NCBI GenBank assembly: GCA_044238735.1 | Contig: JBIICS010000004.1 | Coordinates: 1 to 45,858 of the forward strand | DNA from: Bacteroidia bacterium | Lineage (GTDB): Bacteria; Bacteroidota; Bacteroidia; UBA4408 | DNA length: 45,858 nucleotides | Reading direction: 5' to 3' | In this document: piece after piece, positions 1 through 28,726 of the stretch | How positions within the stretch are numbered: the stretch's first letter is position 1 | Layout: each line of letters begins with the position of its first letter | Notes under the pieces: model-generated | The model's input: only the letters and a program-made list of their open reading frames with translations | Told to the model about the DNA's origin: nothing | The model's database searches: none | Program-made: the position numbers and the translations under genes

Positions 1-1686
1 ATTTGGACTAAATTTTAAAATAGTAACAATATCTTGAATGGCCATAAGCCTTTTAGCGTTTAATGAATAAATTCCACTTCCATCATTAAACCATTCTTCT
101 GTTTCTATCAATATCTTTTTTAATTCCTCTTCTTTACAATCAGGTCCCCTCCAGTTATGTACATTGTCACGAATAGTTAGAAATTCTTCCTTTGAAAACT
201 CTCCATCATTATATATAGCAACATATAAGTTGATGAAACATAAAAGGTGAGAAGTAGTGAATTTGTCAATGCCCATTTTCTCCCAATCAAGATTCAGAAC
301 CATTTTACTATTATTAGCATTATTATATTTGGTGTCAGAAAATTTATTTGGATACATTTTCTGATTATTATTGCCAAGAGAATTATAAATCATTTCAATA
401 TCATTAAGTACGTCTTCCTTAAAAGCATCATTACAATTGAAAACAAAATCGATATAACGCTCATCACGCGGATCTATTAAATTCAGACTTTTAATTTTAG
501 GTGAAGAGCCATCGGTAATTCTTAAACTTAGTCTTCCATCAGTTTTACCTTTAGGGAATAGCATTACAATATTATTATTACCCACCTTTACCGAAACACG
601 CGAAGAAGATTCAACAATTGAATAATTTAAAAGATTTTTAGCATTTAAAAAAGATATAATAGATTCTAACTGTTTTTTGAATAAATTTATTTTACCGAAC
701 TGATCCTCAGGCAATTTTCCCGGTAGTTCCAATTTATTATAGTTTAATTCCGTTTCAAAAGACTCTTTGTTCTTCTTATTATCAGCTGCATTTATCATTT
801 TGGTTGTCTTTTTTTTATCATCTAAACTTGATTCATCAATGGCTAAATCTATTAGATGTCTAACTTTGCTTTCTTCCAAACCCATTGCCCTTCCTAATTC
901 CATAATCCATAATTTTTCTTCCTTTAATAATCCTCTGTTATTTAATGCTAAAATGATTATCAGCCTTAAGATGATGATGTTTAATTTGTTTGGCGACGAT
1001 GCGTTTTTTTCTTTTTTATTTGTAGATTTAGCAAACTCTATAATTTGCTCCTTTGTTTTTAAGTCTTTTGTTAATTGGTAGTACATCTTAAAATATGTAG
1101 CAGTAGCAATTATTATATAATCATTCTCCGTATTATTTGTTAAAACATGATCAGTATACTCTTCATCTAATTTGTTAATATTTCCAATTCTTAAGGTTTT
1201 ATCATAATCCCCATAGATTTTTTTCATTTCATCCAAAAATGCATTTAAGTCTTTTTCGGCCCCCACAAGGAATCCATTTTTAAGCTGAATGTTGTAATAA
1301 TATTTTAAATTATTTGAAATTATTTCCTCCTTTTCTCTTTCATTAAAATCCCAATCGAATTCCCTATAATCAGAATGAACTTTATATGTAAAATCGAAAT
1401 CAAATTCACTTAATTTTACTCCATCTCCATTTCGAAGCATGTTTTGAGTATCTCTTTCAATATTATTAATATCAAAACATATGCATTCAACGTCATTGTA
1501 GAATAAAAGCCAGAAATTATCCTCATTATCCAATACCGAAGGGTCATTTGTTAATCCGTTTATTAAACCAACAAAATTCTCTTTAGCTTCCTCCTCACTG
1601 TATTCATCTTTACTATAAGTTTTGGAAAAATTGTAAAGAACTCTAATTGTTTTAAATTTTACGTTGGAAGCGCTTATTTTTGGCAT
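1..1686 (-). CDS. Large modular TerB-like protein, 3'-partial (>562 aa, runs off the left edge)
   Basis: Hand translation from the ATG at 1686 (MPKISASNVKFK...) stays open to base 1; absent from the ORF track because no stop lies in the window. Contains TerB-like segments (IILALNNRGLLKEEKLWIMELGRAMGL; LYVAIYNDGEFSKEEF) and a copy of the C-terminal domain of the 2804..4534 protein. Confidence 0.85.
   Translation of the reverse strand, partial: MPKISASNVKFKTIRVLYNFSKTYSKDEYSEEEAKENFVGLINGLTNDPSVLDNEDNFWLLFYNDVECICFDINNIERDTQNMLRNGDGVKLSEFDFDFTYKVHSDYREFDWDFNEREKEEIISNNLKYYYNIQLKNGFLVGAEKDLNAFLDEMKKIYGDYDKTLRIGNINKLDEEYTDHVLTNNTENDYIIIATATYFKMYYQLTKDLKTKEQIIEFAKSTNKKEKNASSPNKLNIIILRLIIILALNNRGLLKEEKLWIMELGRAMGLEESKVRHLIDLAIDESSLDDKKKTTKMINAADNKKNKESFETELNYNKLELPGKLPEDQFGKINLFKKQLESIISFLNAKNLLNYSIVESSSRVSVKVGNNNIVMLFPKGKTDGRLSLRITDGSSPKIKSLNLIDPRDERYIDFVFNCNDAFKEDVLNDIEMIYNSLGNNNQKMYPNKFSDTKYNNANNSKMVLNLDWEKMGIDKFTTSHLLCFINLYVAIYNDGEFSKEEFLTIRDNVHNWRGPDCKEEELKKILIETEEWFNDGSGIYSLNAKRLMAIQDIVTILKFSPN
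385..714 (-). repeat. Duplicated coding module, copy 1 (110 codons; paralog of 2819..3148)
   Basis: Ungapped alignment at offset 2434; 90/110 aa identical by hand count; 482..564 is identical to 2916..2998. Confidence 0.95.
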
Positions 1687-1766
1687 AGTGTTTTAATAAA
1701 GAGATAGGCGTTTGTTAATATATTCGATGGGATATAATAAGAAAAAAGGGGTGTTCTTAAACCAAT

Positions 1767-2453
1767 TTATTTACCAACAATTTTGTTATAAAAATTATAA
1801 AGCATTCTATCTAACTCCCAACCTTCCATTCCTAAATTATTTGCTACTTCTATCAAGAATTCCTCACTAGACTTATAGTCAGTATGTGACAGATTACTAT
1901 ATTTAAAAATAGCTTGTATTCTGGAATCTATTGCAATACTATTTCTGAAATCCCTATCATAAATATCCATCCAAAAATTTCTTGAGTATTTCGGGCCAAA
2001 TCCTTTAAACTTCTTAACGAAATTAATTTTCTCATCCCGACCTTTTAAAAGACTAATTTTTTCATCAACTTTAGAAAGATAATCTTTCCCATATTCCTTT
2101 TCTAACATTGAAAGATTGTCATGTATCCACTCAGCTTTTTTATTTGCATATCGAACACCTTGTGTCTTCAGGTATGATTGCAAATAGTGAAGTCTGTCAG
2201 AAGATTTTAAACCTAAAACCGTACTGTGTTGTATTTCTTTATTTAAATTACCTTTCTTGTCAAAAAGCTTTGCGTAACCTTTTGAACCACCTAGACTACT
2301 ATAACACTGAATCATTAAGTTATAGAAAAAGGGCTTGGTTTTACCTAACTCTTTAGCAACCTTTTTTTGTTCCGATAAAAAATTATCAATTTCGTTTTTA
2401 TTTGTTTGGTAAAATTTATTTATAAATTTTTCGAATTGTTTATTTTCTTTCAT
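1767..2453 (-). CDS. Helix-hairpin-helix DNA glycosylase/AP lyase, divergent Ogg2-like
   Basis: HhH motif KKFKGFGPKYSRNF with candidate catalytic Lys, downstream Asp in AIDSR, LKTQGVRYANKKAEWI and ANNLGMEGWELDRMLY segments resembling Ogg2, and a C-terminal Lys. Confidence 0.7.
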   Translation of the reverse strand: MKENKQFEKFINKFYQTNKNEIDNFLSEQKKVAKELGKTKPFFYNLMIQCYSSLGGSKGYAKLFDKKGNLNKEIQHSTVLGLKSSDRLHYLQSYLKTQGVRYANKKAEWIHDNLSMLEKEYGKDYLSKVDEKISLLKGRDEKINFVKKFKGFGPKYSRNFWMDIYDRDFRNSIAIDSRIQAIFKYSNLSHTDYKSSEEFLIEVANNLGMEGWELDRMLYNFYNKIVGK

Positions 2454-2472
2454 TTTTTTATTTTTTTGATTA

Positions 2473-2781
2473 TTAACTCTTCTTTTTAAAAAGCATTTCT
2501 GTTTCGGAAATTTTCACTATTTCATCTTCATCATTTAGTTTAGCAGCTTTATTTTGCTTCTCAATAGTATCAGAAGCAGCGCTTTTATTTACCGTATTAT
2601 GGACTGTAGCTGATTTTATTTGCCCTACACTATTTTGAGAAACGCCAGCCGGCGCATTATCTTTATTTTGTGAGGGGTTATTATTAATTACCGTTGCCTT
2701 GGAAAAAAAATTAGAAATTCCTTTTACCAGAAGCAAAACCGCCACAATAATTAATATCAGGATTGCTAATATAACTTGCAT
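2473..2781 (-). CDS. Small single-pass membrane protein, unknown function
   Basis: N-terminal hydrophobic helix (VILAILILIIVAVLLLV) then a polar tail; about 20 nt gaps to both co-oriented neighbours. Confidence 0.7.
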   Translation of the reverse strand: MQVILAILILIIVAVLLLVKGISNFFSKATVINNNPSQNKDNAPAGVSQNSVGQIKSATVHNTVNKSAASDTIEKQNKAAKLNDEDEIVKISETEMLFKKKS

Positions 2782-2803
2782 CTTTTTTTATTTGAATAAT
2801 TTA

Positions 2804-4534
2804 TTAAACGTATGCCTTATAAACCCTTTCAATATCCTTAAGCACATCTTCCTGAAAGGCCTCATTATAATTGAAAACAAAATCGATGTAACGCTCATCA
2901 CGCGGATCAATTAATTTCAGACTTTTAATTTTAGGTGAAGAGCCATCGGTAATTCTTAAACTTAGTCTTCCATCAGTTTTACCTTTAGGGAATAGCATGA
3001 TAATATTATTACTACCAACTTTAACCGAAACACGAGAGGAAGATTCTGCTACAGAATAAGCATTAAGCCCTTTAGCCTTTAAAAAGGAAACAACAGATTC
3101 CAACTGTTTTCTAAAGAGATCAATCTTGCCGAATTGGTCAGCCGGCAAAGCAGAAGCTGCATTATCTTTTGCTGCTGGTGGATTTTTTACTTTTGATTCC
3201 ACTTCCTTTTTAGGTTTATTGTCAGAAGAACTTTGCTGAACCTTCTGTTTAACCTCTGATACGCCCCAACACTCCTTTTTTAAAAGATCATTTAAACTGT
3301 TAAAATTCACATAAGCTTCGCCCCCGGCCCCATGTTTCCATGTTTCTAAATCTCGGCTGGCCTCAATAACCGGCTTATAGGTATTATAAATTTCAATCAG
3401 AACATCCAGATAACTTCCTCTGTTATCCGGAATAAATTCATCCAAAGACAAGTACTTTTCTCCAGTTTCATCTACGCATAAATTTACAGTTCTTAAATTT
3501 CCTTCCGGCCAATCTTGGTAAATATGATCAATCTGGTCCCAGGCAAAAATTGTTGCCACGTTATTATCATCTTCATGCAACGCATGTATTCCGTTTTTGT
3601 CAACTAATATAAATGAAGCAAGCTTATCGCCATAAATAGCAAAAGGGATTACCCAAAACGCCGTTTTGGTATATTCATGTATTTCTTTTGGTAAAAATTT
3701 AAGTATTGGTATTTTATTCTCCTTAATTCTATCGCAAATAAATTTAATCTGGCTTTCGGTATATAAAGGACAAGATTTTACAATATCGGGTAAGAAATCC
3801 GGTATATAAGCCTTAATACTCATGCTTCTGGCATAATAAGAAGTTTTAGCCACATGATTATTCAAATAAGCGTTTACAACATCCTTTGATTTGGCTAATA
3901 CCGTTTTTTCAATATTTCTAAATCTTATTCCGGGATAATCGATATCATTTTCCTCATCACCATCACTGTTAACATCATCATCCACTTCCTCTTCCTCTTC
4001 CTCTTCCTCTTCGTCTTCGTCTTCATCAATATCTTCATTGTTATTTTGGGTAAATTTTGCACCTTCTATTTTTATATTAGCTTTTTCTATATCTAAATGA
4101 GCCTGAATGAGATTTTCAACTTCATTTCTTTCGATATTCATTTGTTCCCCAATTTCATATAACCACGAAATCTCTCCTTTTTTCAGCTCCCCATCACTCA
4201 ATGCCAATTCAATAACATATGTAAACATTAAATATGCTACATCTAAATCATTGCCTAAACTTTTGTGTATATTTCTAGCAATTTCTTTAACGGAATTTAA
4301 TAATTGATTATCGACTTTAAAATCACTAATAATAGCTTGAGAAAGTTGTGTTCCGACTATCATAGCTGTTACAACTTTACCAGCATCACCATCTGATAAT
4401 TCAGTTAATATATCCTTTATTTTATCACTCTCTTCTTGAGATAATTTTCCATCGCTTTTGGTTGCAAATATCATTAATAAAGTAGCGAAATAGTCAAGCA
4501 TAGTAGGATTATAATTTTCTTCCTTTTTTTTCAT
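2804..4534 (-). CDS. TerB-like domain protein with acidic linker, possible PH-like middle domain and duplicated C-terminal domain
   Basis: Two TerB-type DG-x-L-xxx-E motifs (KSDGKLSQEE, LSDGELKKGE), poly-E/D tract, FILVDKNGI...FAWDQI segment, C-terminal module shared with 1..1686. Confidence 0.75.
   Translation of the reverse strand: MKKKEENYNPTMLDYFATLLMIFATKSDGKLSQEESDKIKDILTELSDGDAGKVVTAMIVGTQLSQAIISDFKVDNQLLNSVKEIARNIHKSLGNDLDVAYLMFTYVIELALSDGELKKGEISWLYEIGEQMNIERNEVENLIQAHLDIEKANIKIEGAKFTQNNNEDIDEDEDEEEEEEEEEVDDDVNSDGDEENDIDYPGIRFRNIEKTVLAKSKDVVNAYLNNHVAKTSYYARSMSIKAYIPDFLPDIVKSCPLYTESQIKFICDRIKENKIPILKFLPKEIHEYTKTAFWVIPFAIYGDKLASFILVDKNGIHALHEDDNNVATIFAWDQIDHIYQDWPEGNLRTVNLCVDETGEKYLSLDEFIPDNRGSYLDVLIEIYNTYKPVIEASRDLETWKHGAGGEAYVNFNSLNDLLKKECWGVSEVKQKVQQSSSDNKPKKEVESKVKNPPAAKDNAASALPADQFGKIDLFRKQLESVVSFLKAKGLNAYSVAESSSRVSVKVGSNNIIMLFPKGKTDGRLSLRITDGSSPKIKSLKLIDPRDERYIDFVFNYNEAFQEDVLKDIERVYKAYV
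2819..3148 (-). repeat. Duplicated coding module, copy 2 (paralog of 385..714)
   Basis: Same alignment as copy 1; here it forms the protein C-terminus. Confidence 0.95.
3985..4026. repeat. Hexamer microsatellite (CTTCCT)4(CTTCGT)2CTTCAT encoding the poly-Glu/Asp tract
   Basis: Read directly from sequence; unit length preserves frame. Confidence 0.85.
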
Positions 4535-4727
4535 AATTGTGCTTTTTTTAAATTTTATTTATAATTTCTTATAAAATACTCATTTATAACACCACAACTC
4601 AATCAACTTGTTGTAATACACTTTTTACTCGCTGTAATTAATTATTTACTATTTAATATATTGTTTTAAGCAGCATAATAATTTAATTTGTATAAACAAG
4701 TTAAAACAGAATTACTTAGCTTTAAAC

Positions 4728-6173
4728 ATGAAACTATTATTTGTAGTCTTTTTTATTTATACTGTGGCCTTTGCCCAAAAACAATGTAGTTTATTACAAC
4801 AACAGGGCAAATGGGACGAATCGTTACGTTGCTCATTTGAAGTATTAAATGAGTTTAAGCTTAAGAGTGGTAAACAGGCCGATGAGATTAAAGCTGATGC
4901 CTGTTATAATATCGGTAATATTTATTTTAAAGTAACTGATAAAACCTACAGTAAATTATATTTTGATAGCGCGTTATATTTTGCAACAAAAACAAAATAT
5001 CATCTATTGAAAGGGAAAATTTATTTAATACGCAATCAGTTAGACAGTGTGCGGCTAATAAATAATAAACTTAATAATGCAGATTTATGGATGTCTTATC
5101 ATCTAAAAAAATGCAACTTTAGGGATAATAACAGGTTTGGCAATACCCACCGGAACATCGATAGTGCAATTACTTTTTATAACTCTTCTTCCGACTTAAA
5201 AAAGTTTCAGTATAACATTGGATTTGCTCAATTTTTGAGCCATTGCAAAATACACGACACTGCTTTAATTTATTTAAATAAAGCAAAGAGCTTCCTCAAA
5301 AATATAGCCGATATGGAAGCAGACCATCATTATGCTTTAATTGCCTGCGAAATTTATCTTAACTGTAATAATCAAGATCAGGCGTTTTATTGGTATCGCC
5401 AACAAGATAGCTTAATTAAGAAGTTCTCTTCTAAACCGGCTTTAATTGCTATGAGAGAATTGGAAGATATTCGGCAATTTAAAATAAAGGATGCTAGGTT
5501 AATAGAAGAACGTAATCGGTTTTTTATTATTAGTATAGTCTCTTCTTCTTTATTAATTATTCTGGGTATTCTACTTTACTTTATTAGAAAAAACAGAAAA
5601 CAACTGATTATAACTACTCAACTAAACCAACACCTTTCTTTCTTATTGTCCACTCTATCGCATGATATTCGTTCGCCCCTGGTTTCTCTTTTTTATATGA
5701 ATAATAAGGAGCATACCGAACAAACCATTAGAACAACTAAGCAATTAAAAAAAATTATCGCAATGGTTGATGATCTTTTACACTGGTCTTCCTCTAATTT
5801 AAATTTAATTACTACCCATAAAGTAAAAATTGATCTACTTGAAATTATTGACGAATGGAATGAATTTTTTAAAGAGGATCTAAAGGCTAAAAATTTAACT
5901 CTACAATTAAATGCGCCCAAACCATTAATCTATTTCGATATGCAGATATTACAACTAATTTTAAGAAATACACTTACCAATGCCATAAAATATAGTAAGT
6001 CTGACCAAGAAATTGAAATAAACCTTAATTACACCGATTTTAACGAAGGTTGCCTACGAATACTGAATACAATTGATACTGAAGCAACGCATCATACAAT
6101 TCCATCGAAAGGTTTGGGTCTTAAATTAATTATTCCGCTGTTAAAGAAGGAGAAAATAGAGTTAACACATTGA
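4728..6173 (+). CDS. Sensor histidine kinase (signal peptide, TPR-like periplasmic region, TM, HisKA, HATPase); C-terminus probably clipped
   Basis: H-box SHDIRSPL, N-box RNTLTNAIKYS, G2 KGLGL; frame continues past TGA 6171-6173 to TAA 6210-6212. Confidence 0.85.
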   Translation: MKLLFVVFFIYTVAFAQKQCSLLQQQGKWDESLRCSFEVLNEFKLKSGKQADEIKADACYNIGNIYFKVTDKTYSKLYFDSALYFATKTKYHLLKGKIYLIRNQLDSVRLINNKLNNADLWMSYHLKKCNFRDNNRFGNTHRNIDSAITFYNSSSDLKKFQYNIGFAQFLSHCKIHDTALIYLNKAKSFLKNIADMEADHHYALIACEIYLNCNNQDQAFYWYRQQDSLIKKFSSKPALIAMRELEDIRQFKIKDARLIEERNRFFIISIVSSSLLIILGILLYFIRKNRKQLIITTQLNQHLSFLLSTLSHDIRSPLVSLFYMNNKEHTEQTIRTTKQLKKIIAMVDDLLHWSSSNLNLITTHKVKIDLLEIIDEWNEFFKEDLKAKNLTLQLNAPKPLIYFDMQILQLILRNTLTNAIKYSKSDQEIEINLNYTDFNEGCLRILNTIDTEATHHTIPSKGLGLKLIIPLLKKEKIELTH

Positions 6174-10898: not shown

Positions 10899-12455
10899 CT
10901 ATCCTTTTGGATTTAATACGATATAAGGTATGATCATTTCTTCCATAGATACGCCTCCATGCTGGAAAGTATTTCGATAATAGCTAACGTAATGGTTGTA
11001 ATTATTAGGGTAAGCAAAAAACTTGTCTTCCTTGGCAAAAACATAGCACGAACTCACATGTTGTTTAGGAAGAAAAGCATCATGCGGATTCTTCACCTCA
11101 AACACATCGCGCTTTTCAAAGGCTAAACTTTTACCTGTTTTGTAACGCAAATTAGTATTCGTGTTTTTATCTCCTACTATTTTAGACGCCTCTTTAACAT
11201 GAACAGTACCATGATCGGTTGTAATAATTACCTTCACCTTTTTGGTGGCTAAAAACTTTAATGCTTCCTGCAAAGGCGAGTGTTCAAACCAACTTTCGGT
11301 AATAGAACGGTAAGCTCTTTCTGTATCTGCCAGTTCTCTTATTACTTCCATTTCGGTTCGAGCATGAGAAAGCATATCTACAAAATTATACACGATAGCA
11401 TTAAACTTATTCTGTAAAAGATTTGGCAGATTTTCTACCATTTTTTTTCCTGCGTTTAAGTTGGTAATTTTTGTATACGAAAACTTAATATTTTTACCAA
11501 GTCGCTTTAATTGATCAGCCAAAAAAACATCTTCAAAATTGTTTTTACCATCCTCGTCTTCATCGTTTTTCCATTGTTGCGGAAATCGCTTTTCCATTTC
11601 TAAAGGCAATAAGCCCGAAAAGAAAGCATTTCGTGCATATTGGGTTGCCGTAGGCAATATAGAACAATAAGTTTCTTCTCGTTCTATTTTGTAAAATTCT
11701 GTTATAATTGGCTGCAAAACTTTCCATTGATCAAAACGCAGATTATCGATAAGAAATAAAAATACAGTCTCATCGCCGTCTATTTCCTTTACAATGTTAT
11801 TTTTAAATAGTGTATGCGAAAAATTAGGCTTATCCGGATTTTTACCATTTAACCAATCAATGTAGTTTCGTTCTATAAACTTAAAGAAAAGTGAATTGGC
11901 ATCTGACTTTTGTGTTTTTAAAATATCTATTAAATTTTCGTCGTTAGAGTTTTCTAATTCAAGCTCCCAATAAATCAATTTTTTATAGGTCTCTTCCCAC
12001 TCTTTCCAACTTAGCCTATCGGATAGATTCATGCTAATGTTCCTAAATTCTTGCTGATAATTGGAAGTGGTTTTTTCACTCACCAAACGCTTATTGTCCA
12101 AATTCTTTTTTAAAGAAAGTAGAATCTGTTTTGGATTAACCGGTTTAATTAAATAATCAGAAATTTTACTTCCAATGGCATCTTCCATAATTAATTCCTC
12201 TTCGCTTTTCGTTATCATAATTACTGGCCAGGCTGGATGCTTAACTTTTAACTTTTGTAGGGTTTCCAGGCCGGATAGCCCCGGCATATTTTCATCCAGA
12301 AAAACAATGTCAAAATCTTGTTGAGCAGCTAAATCAAGGGCATCGGATCCGCTGTTTGCGGTAATTACCTCATAGCCCTTATCCTCCAAAAATAAGATGT
12401 GAGGTTTCAGCAAATCAATTTCATCATCGGCCCACAATATTTTAACTTTTTCCAT
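10899..12455 (-). CDS. porX: T9SS response regulator PorX (receiver plus PglZ/alkaline phosphatase domain)
   Basis: ILWADDEIDLLKPH, FLDENMPG, IDNLRFDQW, LPTATQYARNA, TTDHG, FQHGGVS. Confidence 0.95.
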   Translation of the reverse strand: MEKVKILWADDEIDLLKPHILFLEDKGYEVITANSGSDALDLAAQQDFDIVFLDENMPGLSGLETLQKLKVKHPAWPVIMITKSEEELIMEDAIGSKISDYLIKPVNPKQILLSLKKNLDNKRLVSEKTTSNYQQEFRNISMNLSDRLSWKEWEETYKKLIYWELELENSNDENLIDILKTQKSDANSLFFKFIERNYIDWLNGKNPDKPNFSHTLFKNNIVKEIDGDETVFLFLIDNLRFDQWKVLQPIITEFYKIEREETYCSILPTATQYARNAFFSGLLPLEMEKRFPQQWKNDEDEDGKNNFEDVFLADQLKRLGKNIKFSYTKITNLNAGKKMVENLPNLLQNKFNAIVYNFVDMLSHARTEMEVIRELADTERAYRSITESWFEHSPLQEALKFLATKKVKVIITTDHGTVHVKEASKIVGDKNTNTNLRYKTGKSLAFEKRDVFEVKNPHDAFLPKQHVSSCYVFAKEDKFFAYPNNYNHYVSYYRNTFQHGGVSMEEMIIPYIVLNPKG

Positions 12456-26044: not shown

Positions 26045-26455
26045 TTATTTCAATTCTGATAGAGCAAGAATATGATCAAACTCTTCAACTCTAACAGGCA
26101 TAACAGAAAGCCGAGATTGCTTAATTAGGCCTATATTTTGCAATTTTTTATCCGCCTTTATTTGAGCAAGTGATACTGGATTTTTGAGCGTTTTAAAAGG
26201 ACTTAGATCTACCACTACCCAATTAGCATCATCCGTTGTGGGATCCTGATAATATTCTTTCACTACTTTTGCAATTCCAATAATTTCCATTCCTTCGTTG
26301 CTATGATAGAAGAAAACCAAATCTCCTTTTTTCATTGCTTTTAAATTGTTTCGGGCCTGATAATTTCTGACACCATCCCAAAATGTTTTTTTATCCTTCA
26401 GAAACTTTTCCCAAGAATATTTAAAAGGCTCTGATTTTACTAACCAATAATTCAT
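26045..26455 (-). CDS. EVE domain protein
   Basis: YWLVKSEP, WDGVRNYQARN, FFYHS, SRLSVMPV. Confidence 0.95.
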   Translation of the reverse strand: MNYWLVKSEPFKYSWEKFLKDKKTFWDGVRNYQARNNLKAMKKGDLVFFYHSNEGMEIIGIAKVVKEYYQDPTTDDANWVVVDLSPFKTLKNPVSLAQIKADKKLQNIGLIKQSRLSVMPVRVEEFDHILALSELK

Positions 26456-28306: not shown

Positions 28307-28726
28307 ATGAAGCCTTTAGAAATAAAGATTAAGGAAGAAAACCAAAAAAGGTTTATTCAATGCTTAATTCGCAAAAAATGGCTGGTGTTAAGTCCGGAAG
28401 AATGGGTAAGACAACATTTTGTTTTACATTTAATTAACGATTTAAACTATTCTATCATTCAATTAGGAATTGAAGTAAGCTTGAAATATAACCAGATAAA
28501 TAAAAGAGCCGATTTGGTAGTTTACAATAAACAAGGGAATGCCAGCTGGGTTATAGAATGTAAGGAACAATCTGTTAATTTAACAAACGAAGTTTTACAT
28601 CAGGCATTGATCTATAATAGTGTTTTAGATGTAAAGTATGTAAGCATAACAAATGGAATTTTAGTTTTTACCTGGGAGAAAACCGATCATGAGTTTAAGC
28701 TTTTAGAGAAATGGCCCGAAGTTTAG
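28307..28726 (+). CDS. Stand-alone HsdR N-terminal-like PD-(D/E)xK domain protein
   Basis: IRKKWLVLSPEEWVRQ, RADLVVY, IECK, ITNG. Confidence 0.88.
   Translation: MKPLEIKIKEENQKRFIQCLIRKKWLVLSPEEWVRQHFVLHLINDLNYSIIQLGIEVSLKYNQINKRADLVVYNKQGNASWVIECKEQSVNLTNEVLHQALIYNSVLDVKYVSITNGILVFTWEKTDHEFKLLEKWPEV

Follow-up and report, generated by a model that had tools for sequence, protein, structure and literature searches.

We analyzed a 45,858-nt stretch of the genome of a Bacteroidia bacterium (assembly GCA_044238735.1, contig JBIICS010000004.1, positions 1 to 45,858; hereafter the window), and in particular a gene cassette at its left end in which a TerB-domain protein, p1, is encoded next to a putative DNA glycosylase, p3. 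A reading of the letters alone, made without database searches (the sequence-only reading), had described four co-oriented, closely spaced genes there. The list of open reading frames (ORFs) of the window gives these four ORFs, p1 to p4, at exactly the same coordinates, all on the minus strand (Table 1), with intergenic gaps of 22 nt (p1-p2), 19 nt (p2-p3), and 80 nt (p3-p4). The same reading had supposed that the locus runs on past the left edge, and it does. The window starts at a contig end, where p4 runs off, and the reverse complement of a second contig of the assembly, C11, ends with exactly the first 24 bases of the window, with the p4 frame continuing there. A 646-aa database protein, encoded on a 70,068-base contig, consists of the 562 aa from the window plus the C11 part, with an overlap of 8 residues. 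Because of the 24-base overlap, the continued frame, and the matching 646-aa protein, the join is real. On C11, the rest of p4 is followed after 127 nt by p5 (999 aa) and, 6 nt after p5, by p6 (108 aa), both co-oriented with the others. The whole unit consists of six co-oriented genes, p1 to p6, over about 8.4 kb.

A terminator-like hairpin with a 10-bp stem was found 3' of p6 (C11 region L001, 3823 to 3845), and a terminator scan of the coding strand found no such sites between the six genes. A sigma-70 promoter scan was not above shuffled sequences (31 sites found, 25 expected), Bacteroidota-type promoters being outside the models of the tool. The six genes probably form one transcription unit.

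Table 1. Features of the cassette. Positions are those of the window unless the second contig is named.
Feature	Position	Strand	Description or basis
p1	4534..2804 (feature 2804..4534)	-	576 aa; TerB, acidic linker, helical + PH-like domain, DUF5655-like module
p1 TerB domain (residues ~13-141)	4112..4498	-	Pfam TerB
p1 poly-acidic linker	3935..4027	-	25/40 residues D or E
p1 middle domain (residues ~195-425)	3260..3952	-	conserved family without Pfam model
p1 PH/PTB-like core (residues ~278-399)	3338-3703	-	structure search
Module copy 1 (p1 residues 455-576)	2807..3172	-	paralog matches
p2	2473..2781	-	102 aa; one N-terminal transmembrane-type helix (~2725-2778), low-complexity tail
p3	1767..2453	-	228 aa; Ogg2-like HhH-GPD DNA glycosylase/AP-lyase candidate
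p3 HhH-GPD active-site stretch	1914..2012	-	Lys155 at 1989-1991, Asp176 at 1926-1928
p4	1..1686	-	first 562 of 646 aa; open at window edge
Module copy 2 (p4 residues 318-437)	376..735	-	paralog matches
p4 C-terminal TerB-like domain (residues 479-562; to ~581 on C11)	1..252	-	TerB-subfamily profile
Module copy 3 (p5 residues 876-999, C-terminus)	on C11		paralog matches
Divergent intergenic region between p1 and a histidine-kinase-like gene	4535..4727	.	193 nt; presumed promoter region

The most distinctive trait of the cassette, absent from the sequence-only reading, is a module common to three of the six proteins, p1, p4, and p5. Its copies are 71 to 80% identical at the protein level and 75 to 84% at the DNA level, and those of p1 and p4 have an exact 83-nt tract in common. 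The dN/dS ratios in the three comparisons are 0.22, 0.09, and 0.20; the module is under purifying selection in all three proteins. Besides p1, p4, and p5, no copy was found in the genome, and 400 other genomes of the class gave a single marginal match (E value of 3.4e-4). Neither a word search of 5.8 billion proteins nor a full HMMER run with p1 against 1.84 billion representatives returned a nonself match to it. The isolated module did not match DUF5655 (PF18899) or any other Pfam family at E values up to 1. In a structure search, an ESM Atlas model of the p1 C-terminus aligned with DUF5655 clusters with TM-scores of 0.60 to 0.69 over 98 to 115 residues, both sides being predicted models, and one DUF5655 row passed the bar of the tool for naming a family. 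The matched clusters are stand-alone proteins or C-terminal domains of GmrSD, KAP NTPase, NucS-like, and GIY-YIG proteins. The module may thus resemble DUF5655 in its predicted fold, and it has a similar size of about 110 aa. The two differ in that there is no match at the sequence level and in that the module sits on nonenzymatic proteins, three times in one locus. The literature offered essentially nothing on DUF5655, with one unrelated paper found. Presumably the module has a ligand common to the three proteins, either DNA or a shared partner. A complex prediction of p3 with the p1 and p4 modules returned a score of 0.00, which is no answer and carries no weight either way.

The sequence-only reading had called both p1 and p4 TerB-like. 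For p1, this agrees with Pfam: TerB (PF05099) matches residues 20 to 141 with 28.2 bits, above the cutoff of 24.4. The domain scores 31.3 bits in a six-frame search and 39.9 bits with a TerB-subfamily profile made from the small TerB proteins encoded beside p1 relatives in metagenome loci. For p4, the assignment holds for the C-terminal part only and by this custom profile. The protein consists, in order, of about 230 N-terminal residues without an assigned fold (the first 235 aa have no usable Atlas match, with TM-scores of at most 0.31), a half-TerB-like stretch, the module, and the C-terminal TerB-like domain. Residues 479 to 581 match the TerB-subfamily profile with 31.2 bits and also directly match small ORFs beside p1 relatives; with p4 as truncated by the window, the match (residues 479 to 537) has an E value of 3.4e-6 against all 3249 ORFs of the genome. 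Neither Pfam TerB nor any other Pfam family matched p4 at E values up to 1, and BLASTP against the TerB domain of p1 gave a match of only 32 residues (E value of 0.003). Judged by profile, p4 would therefore be TerB-like in its C-terminal part but not a member of the Pfam family.

Of the 98 matches to p1 in the 1.84 billion representatives, 2 are fragments of the same organism (P0013, recognized by sequence against p5, and P0048, by 100% identity to the p1 C-terminus). The remaining 96 relatives all match at residues ~180 to 425, the middle domain. An AlphaFold2 model of this domain, built on a 33-sequence alignment, has a pLDDT of 90.5, with strands at positions 98 to 173 and a helix at 181 to 199 (model numbering). 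The best Foldseek matches were the PTB domain of Numb (E value of 5.9e-4) and the FERM F3 domain. With VIA-align, all 50 rows listed are PH/PTB/FERM-like (Z of 5.8 to 8.2), with the PH domain of TFIIH p62 at the top (Z of 8.2), although Z scores of such size may mean merely a common arrangement. In the predicted structure, the middle domain is a PH/PTB-like fold, with a beta sandwich and a C-terminal helix cap.

We scanned 78 of the 96 relatives, those of 150 to 1100 aa, for Pfam partners of this domain; the other 18, outside this length range, were omitted. Ankyrin repeats were found in 17, TerB in 8, TPR in 4, MORN in 2, and Sel1, DUF4116, F5/8-C, and DUF7669 in 1 each, while 46 had no Pfam family. 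A metagenome scan with an 8-row alignment gave 77 loci with GC contents of 25 to 49%, several of them in records named marine. A TerB-like domain is present in the same ORF in 20 of the 79 middle-domain proteins encoded there, and a separate small TerB-like gene (at most 170 aa) at 35 of the 77 loci. An ion channel or exchanger is encoded at 22 of the 77 loci (21 of the 47 loci with at least five genes), and DUF2779, GmrSD_N, a 1347-aa AAA_16 protein, or SLFN_AlbA_2 at 18. Pfam names given to representatives of the neighbors include an Ion_trans-NUDIX fusion, a KAP NTPase, NT5C, and a phage integrase. The pairing of TerB with the PH-like domain is recurrent and undescribed: a literature search, to which subscription journals were closed, found no description of such a family or of a TerB domain with ankyrin repeats. 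A PH-like domain family without a Pfam model, often fused or adjacent to TerB and near channels, offers a handle on TerB function.

Two gene arrangements recur among these loci. The Ion_trans (138 bits) and NUDIX (60 bits) fusion is encoded at L149:7847-9103 and also at L147 to L163, and its cluster is present in 13 of the 77 loci. The gene run there is conserved and comprises small TerB proteins, a TerB-ankyrin-PH-like protein of about 820 aa, a 221-aa protein, the channel, DUF4262, and DUF2779. We take this architecture to be reminiscent of the ADP-ribose-gated channel TRPM2, and by analogy the fusion might be a nucleotide-gated effector. The other arrangement, seen in 6 to 7 of the 77 loci, is a trio of a 1347-aa AAA_16 (STAND-like) protein, a 94-aa BRCT protein, and a short protein with the PH-like domain (L100:3749-8938; also L101, L102, L110, and L155). 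At L100, the trio is followed by an Na/H exchanger with TrkA_N and an SLFN_AlbA_2 protein. Within the genome under study, other weak TerB matches lie at G000:C32:4661-4849 (27.2 bits) and G000:C15:18399-18638 (17.9 bits), in ORFs of 1032 aa each, and a small TerB-like gene of 130 aa stands amid housekeeping genes at C144:30635-31024.

The other three proteins have few or no relatives. A single segment of p2, at its N-terminus, is strongly hydrophobic (Kyte-Doolittle maximum of 3.37), and Pfam gives this protein a weak match to DUF4834 only (18.6 bits; cutoff, 27.8). No hydrophobic segment was found in p1, p3, p5, or p6. The membrane link proposed in the sequence-only reading accordingly comes down to the single helix of p2 and the TerB literature. 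Of the 65 residues in an acidic stretch of p5 (L001, ~826 to 1020), 37 are D or E. p5 also has a subthreshold DUF4116 repeat (21.9 bits; cutoff, 24.9), and its residues 1 to 870 had no homolog among 7998 scored candidates. The poly-acidic stretches of p1 and p5 both lie between the N-terminal and the following domain. A Mab-21 nucleotidyltransferase was considered for p5 and rejected, as its E value of 0.018 fails the cutoff and no GS...DxD motif could be seen by eye near residue 760. p6 is an orphan by Pfam, PHROGs, and PADLOC; the PHROGs search gave nothing better than an E value of 0.003.

The sequence-only reading of p3 as a stand-alone HhH glycosylase is borne out by structure comparison. 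The AlphaFold2 model of p3 (58-sequence alignment, pLDDT of 93.9) is closest in the PDB to the Ogg2 enzymes 3n0u (Tm1821), 3fhf/3knt (MjOgg), and 3fhg (SsOgg), with TM-scores of 0.63 to 0.74 and E values of 3e-5 to 7e-4 over ~225 aligned columns, at 16 to 19% sequence identity. Endonuclease III and OGG1 are clearly poorer matches, and the 50 best PDB matches listed (E values of at most 0.05) are all HhH-GPD enzymes. Profile scores are low: p3 scores 20.6 bits against Ogg-HhH (PF22175; cutoff, 27) and 29.4 bits against PRK01229 of NCBIfam (cutoff, 183), and the Pfam HhH-GPD model (PF00730) did not match it in the genome search. In the alignment of 58 family sequences, a stretch GxGPKY...AIDSRI is conserved, in which G151, G153, Lys155, and Asp176 are invariant. 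A profile alignment (E value of 0.21) places Lys155 and Asp176 on the Lys and Asp of GLGMK...IDRHI in 9o00, an 8-oxoguanine glycosylase/apurinic-apyrimidinic (AP) lyase. In the HhH-GPD superfamily, a Gly/Pro-rich loop and a conserved catalytic Asp come after the helix-hairpin-helix, and in the bifunctional members a lysine in the second helix of the hairpin is the nucleophile. On the strength of its predicted fold, p3 is a divergent glycosylase of the HhH-GPD superfamily, outside the curated Ogg2 families. It has the residues required of a bifunctional glycosylase/AP lyase, is catalytically plausible, and, if the model is right, probably has a mode of action like that of Ogg2.

With the Ogg2 enzymes Tm1821, MjOgg, and SsOgg, p3 shares the two-domain, all-helical HhH-GPD fold over the whole length, a size in the range of ~205 to 230 aa, and a hairpin Lys followed by an Asp about 20 residues later. 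Unlike them, it is far under the curated cutoffs at its low identity, and its family is patchy across phyla and often in accessory contexts. The likeness is one of fold and catalytic residues, and specificity for 8-oxoguanine is not implied.

The p3 family is small and scattered. A word index of the 5.8 billion proteins gave 9 matches, and contigs of a one-genome-per-species collection (185,579 species) gave at least 79 loci, a lower bound, as a single peptide pattern was used. These loci span Acidobacteriota, Planctomycetota, Verrucomicrobiota, Proteobacteria, Deinococcota, a Methanothrix, and others. No homolog was found in 26 genomes of the organism's own family. The only clear homolog in 60 sampled relatives (L003; G034:C11:80836-84390; E value of 1.8e-22) is flanked by genes for an AAA ATPase (PF00004) and for a DUF7663 protein, and the three share one strand.

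The family has no conserved neighbor gene. Its largest neighbor cluster, a LysR regulator by Pfam of the representative, is present at 6 of 79 loci. At 23 of 78 loci, toxin-antitoxin, restriction, CRISPR, transposase, integrase, or similar genes lie within two ORFs of the glycosylase gene, a sorting that is our own reading of the Pfam names. The types found there include toxin-antitoxin pairs; HNH, Mrr, PLD, and PD-(D/E)XK nucleases; a C5 methylase; Cas2, WYL, SLFN_AlbA_2, and AAA_15/21 ATPases; and transposases, an integrase, and a resolvase. An AAA_15/AAA_21 ATPase gene is directly upstream of the glycosylase homolog in L022 (with DUF3696), L043, and L069, in a cluster of 4 loci, and an AAA_21 protein is encoded near the homolog in L078. 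ATPase and glycosylase homolog may form a recurrent two-gene unit within the family.

The central proposal of the sequence-only reading was a TerB sensor or scaffold paired with a base-excision effector, and this pairing failed the test of co-occurrence that the reading had itself set. Pfam found no TerB in the 277 ORFs that neighbor the glycosylase gene at 78 loci, where up to four of the closest ORFs per locus were scanned. At distances of up to 10 kb from 80 glycosylase loci there are 5987 ORFs; phmmer found no homologs of p1, p2, p4, p5, or p6 among them, and none matched the profiles made for the TerB subfamily, for the middle domain, or for the module. In the opposite direction, the glycosylase and module profiles matched none of the 1174 ORFs at the 77 p1-family loci. 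Thus, the glycosylase and the TerB/PH-like/module parts do not co-occur elsewhere, in either direction. In the literature search, likewise, neither this gene set nor, among the papers listed, a pairing of TerB with a glycosylase was described.

We compared the cassette with the known systems that resemble it in part. Shango is composed of a TerB protein, an ATPase, and a helicase. By Pfam and NCBIfam, no ATPase, helicase, or pore-forming multipass membrane protein is present among the six proteins of the cassette, and the PADLOC models of Shango and Bunzi had no match to them. PADLOC matched p1 to p4 at no E value below 0.017, and full-length p4, p5, and p6 had no match at E values up to 0.01. 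The weak matches (Cas6, PDC-S48, and LeoBC; E values of 0.017 to 0.069) are not components of Shango or Bunzi. This is in line with the statement of the sequence-only reading that the gene set is unnamed and free of housekeeping content. Bunzi and Shango are reported as anti-phage systems with TerB (bioRxiv 10.1101/2022.05.11.491447), and Dionysus comprises DinA (MAEBL and a transmembrane segment), the TerB-like DinB, and DinC, a four-transmembrane pore-forming toxin (bioRxiv 10.1101/2025.09.30.679545). TerB of these three systems is proposed to be a membrane-surveillance module (bioRxiv 10.1101/2022.05.11.491447, 10.1101/2025.09.30.679545). The cassette is similar to all three in having a TerB protein and a membrane protein in a small multigene accessory locus. 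It differs from them in the fusion of TerB to a PH-like domain and a DUF5655-like module, and, compared by composition, from Dionysus in having one clear hydrophobic helix, that of p2, and no four-helix protein.

The Ter stress cluster (terZABCDE) has TerD-family, TerC, and TerA genes next to TerB. The cassette has the TerB domain in common with it, but TerD-, TerZ-, TerA-, TerC-, or TerE-type proteins were not found by Pfam among its six proteins or 38 further proteins of the window and C11. Anantharaman et al. reportedly proposed in 2012 a general link between TerB and DNA-processing functions.

Among glycosylases, Brig1 is said to be a single enzyme that attacks modified phage bases. It has a uracil-DNA glycosylase (UDG) fold (bioRxiv 10.1101/2025.10.29.685425), so that it shares the concept with p3 but differs in fold; a Brig1-type UDG fold is ruled out for p3, given that 50 of the 50 best PDB matches listed are HhH-GPD enzymes. 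In the same preprint, HhH glycosylases named Dag are described as single-gene phage defenses, polyphyletic and all of the HhH fold, which are found in Vibrio integron cassettes and target 7-deazaguanine-modified phage DNA; Dag1 behaves as a bifunctional enzyme (bioRxiv 10.1101/2025.10.29.685425). By their description, Dag1, Dag2, and further Dag families resemble p3 as small stand-alone HhH glycosylases in accessory DNA that are divergent from housekeeping enzymes. Lys155 suggests that p3 may be bifunctional, as Dag1 is described to be. The settings differ, with the Dags in Vibrio integrons and p3 in a freshwater Bacteroidota-type genome, where its cassette is operon-like. No named system fits the locus, although the kinds, TerB accessory loci and stand-alone HhH glycosylases, are known. 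New as variants of these kinds are their combination, the family of PH-like domains, and the private module in three copies.

Outside the cassette, the window consists of core genes, with LpxD, LpxC-FabZ, LpxA, UvrD, deoxynucleoside kinase, DNA polymerase III delta, and GreA, besides a PorX-type response regulator with a PglZ domain and a type IX secretion substrate. On C11, the p6 hairpin is followed by convergent housekeeping genes, which encode a family-2 glycosyltransferase, an Lpd-like flavoprotein, and proteins of the CxxCxxCC and glyoxalase-fold types. On the window side, the cassette is bordered by kinase/LytTR genes. The cassette is AT rich against this background, with a GC content of 30.6% in its window part and 28.6% in its C11 part, compared with 34.6% for the genome, which places it in the lowest 2.7% of 4.5-kb windows; p3 has a GC content of 28.5%. 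Orthologs of the Lpd-like flanking gene were found in 25 of 26 genomes of the family, with best-match identities of only 59 to 68% in the genomes listed. Eight fetched 20-kb regions showed no synteny beyond the Lpd-like and CxxCxxCC genes, and because relatives at this identity are too distant, no empty insertion site could be shown.

The locus was found, whole or in part, in 20 lake or freshwater sequencing runs from 19 studies, 11 of which contained at least half of the sampled words. DNA contigs from three runs of different studies have zero differing letters over the locus, and two of them extend past the left end of the window. In one metatranscriptome (X20), five short contigs with 0 to 2 differences lie on p1, p2, p3 (twice), and the start of p4; the RNA contigs cover 10 of 30 bins, and the uncovered parts are uninformative. 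This hints at expression of p1 to p4, with DNA carry-over possible. Many loose ends of single contigs (X1, X3, and X5) in window positions 1 to 4800 fall at or near gene boundaries, at 1791, 2442/2443, 2475, 2820, 4560, and 4691. A weak joint of 2476 to 4547 in X5, with a shorter side of 24 letters, would delete exactly p1 and p2 and keep p3, and a second joint connects 1042 to 4550 in X3; both joints are short sided or of low depth and are hints only. These ends and joints hint at gene-by-gene variation of the cassette among strains that occur together.

We favor, with a probability of roughly 45%, the reading that the locus is a composite accessory cassette whose two parts do not depend on each other and which, as part of the same reading, is lineage-specific, horizontally acquired DNA. 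One part would be p3, a self-sufficient, Dag-like enzyme of the Ogg2 type from a thinly scattered family with no fixed partner. It would most likely flip out and excise an unusual purine and then nick the DNA on its own; it would act on foreign DNA that carries a modified base, as the Dags do, or else on oxidized guanine. Like a Dag, p3 has the HhH fold, is distinct from the Nth-like and MutY-like genes of the genome, and lacks a conserved partner. The other part would consist of p1, p4, and p5, perhaps with p2 and p6, as nonenzymatic adaptors assembled from binding domains: TerB, PH/PTB-like domains, DUF4116-like repeats, and poly-acidic linkers, with one private DUF5655-like module in all three. 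Read from the sequence as they are, the activity and substrate of p3, the ligand of the module, the operon status, and an anti-phage or stress role of the locus are putative. If the cassette is composite, the p3 family is a candidate for single-gene glycosylase defense outside Vibrio integrons, and the adaptors are a clear example of selection maintaining a single private domain in three proteins of one operon that are otherwise unrelated.

Several observations weigh against this reading. The locus is a singleton, and a working system that was put together recently would not co-occur elsewhere either. The six genes lie close together, with p3 inside the array of module-bearing genes at gaps of 19 to 22 nt, and tight packing of genes in bacteria often means a functional link. 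At 55 of the 78 glycosylase loci the neighbors are metabolic or unannotated, and 30 of the 77 p1-family metagenome loci are short contigs with fewer than five called genes. The likeness of the module to DUF5655 is a lead from predicted models, not a membership, and has no sequence support. Neither defense genes in the locus (PADLOC) nor a defense island in the 45-kb window (Pfam) was found; of the defense setting that the sequence-only reading had proposed, the surroundings are housekeeping, and what stands is the company kept by relatives of the components elsewhere, such as the 23 of 78 glycosylase loci beside conflict-type genes.

The same packing could instead mean that the cassette is one integrated system, in which the module on p1, p4, and p5 binds DNA or the other copies and recruits or licenses p3 against modified DNA or under stress, while TerB, the PH-like domain, and p2 would place p1, p4, and p5 at the membrane. 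The operon-like arrangement with p3 embedded between module-bearing genes, the terminator-like site only after p6, and the low GC content throughout are as such a system would have them. Purifying selection on the module together with the 83-nt tract identical in p1 and p4 suggests joint evolution; DUF5655-like folds are found on DNA-targeting defense enzymes; and TerB proteins belong to Bunzi, Shango, and Dionysus, which are validated defense systems. Against this stands the glycosylase family itself, which never occurs with TerB, the PH-like domain, or the module in searches from both sides and is clearly self-sufficient elsewhere. The joint of 2476 to 4547 in X5, weak as it is with 24 letters on the shorter side, removes p1 and p2 but keeps p3. 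We consider an integrated system unlikely, although it survives best among the alternatives.

Next, and also unlikely, is that p3 is simply a housekeeping repair enzyme, namely, the 8-oxoguanine glycosylase of the organism, replacing an absent Fpg/MutM amid unrelated orphans. The closest solved structures are indeed Ogg2 8-oxoguanine glycosylases, and the genome, which is 98.5% complete, has separate Nth-like and MutY-like HhH-GPD genes but neither an Fpg domain (PF01149) nor a further Ogg-HhH match besides p3. However, Fpg/MutM is absent from all 27 genomes of the family, 23 of which are at least 90% complete. Because the 26 relatives without Fpg are also without p3, the lineage manages without either, and p3 is not needed as a replacement. 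The atypically low GC content of p3, the patchiness of its family (at least 79 loci in the 185,579 species), the roughly 30% of family members beside mobile, toxin-antitoxin, or restriction genes, and the wide margin by which the curated Ogg cutoffs are missed all speak against a housekeeping role.

More speculative, and in our view doubtful, are two extensions of the TerB theme. In one, the whole cassette would be a single membrane-proximal DNA-surveillance system, with three adaptors that carry different sensing heads (TerB plus the PH-like domain in p1, the TerB-like domain in p4, and DUF4116-like repeats in p5) and with the module docking on DNA or a common hub and handing modified DNA to p3. 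In the bolder one, the locus would belong to an undescribed family of TerB and PH-like adaptor loci of aquatic bacteria with interchangeable effectors, which would be channels (the Ion_trans-NUDIX fusion included), nucleases, or, here, a glycosylase. Should the cassette act as a unit, no earlier TerB system would have a base-excision effector, and it would give a testable role to the DUF5655 fold, which decorates many defense nucleases.

The p1 relatives also allow a reading with no DNA role, in which the TerB and PH-like proteins are channel-associated adaptors in ion-flux or membrane-stress regulation and the locus is a remnant or variant of such a set. A channel or exchanger at 22 of the 77 p1-family loci (21 of the 47 with at least five genes), with one Ion_trans-NUDIX fusion, agrees with this, as do the ankyrin partners: in eukaryotes, ankyrin and PH/FERM-like adaptors are classical channel anchors. 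The locus itself has no channel, however, the nearest transporter being a CorA gene 35 kb off; the structural kin of the module are on DNA enzymes; and the glycosylase is left unexplained, so that we regard this reading as improbable. That the ORFs are decaying or meaningless frames in a low-GC stretch is very improbable: the p4 N-terminus, p5, and p6 have no detectable relatives, and AT-rich DNA could yield long frames, but the module has dN/dS values of 0.09 to 0.22, two domains have confident folds, the locus is letter identical in three independent DNA runs, and metatranscriptome contigs, DNA carry-over being possible, lie on p1, p2, p3, and the start of p4.

Elsewhere in the window, at 10899 to 12455, a response-regulator receiver is fused to PglZ, with no other BREX gene nearby; the fusion presumably corresponds to a PorX-type regulator of type IX secretion and not to a BREX component. 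A stand-alone HSDR_N_2 protein (139 aa) is encoded at 28307 to 28726, and the window encodes no restriction-modification partner for it. A stand-alone EVE-domain protein (169 bits) is encoded at 26045 to 26455, beside the DNA polymerase III delta gene.

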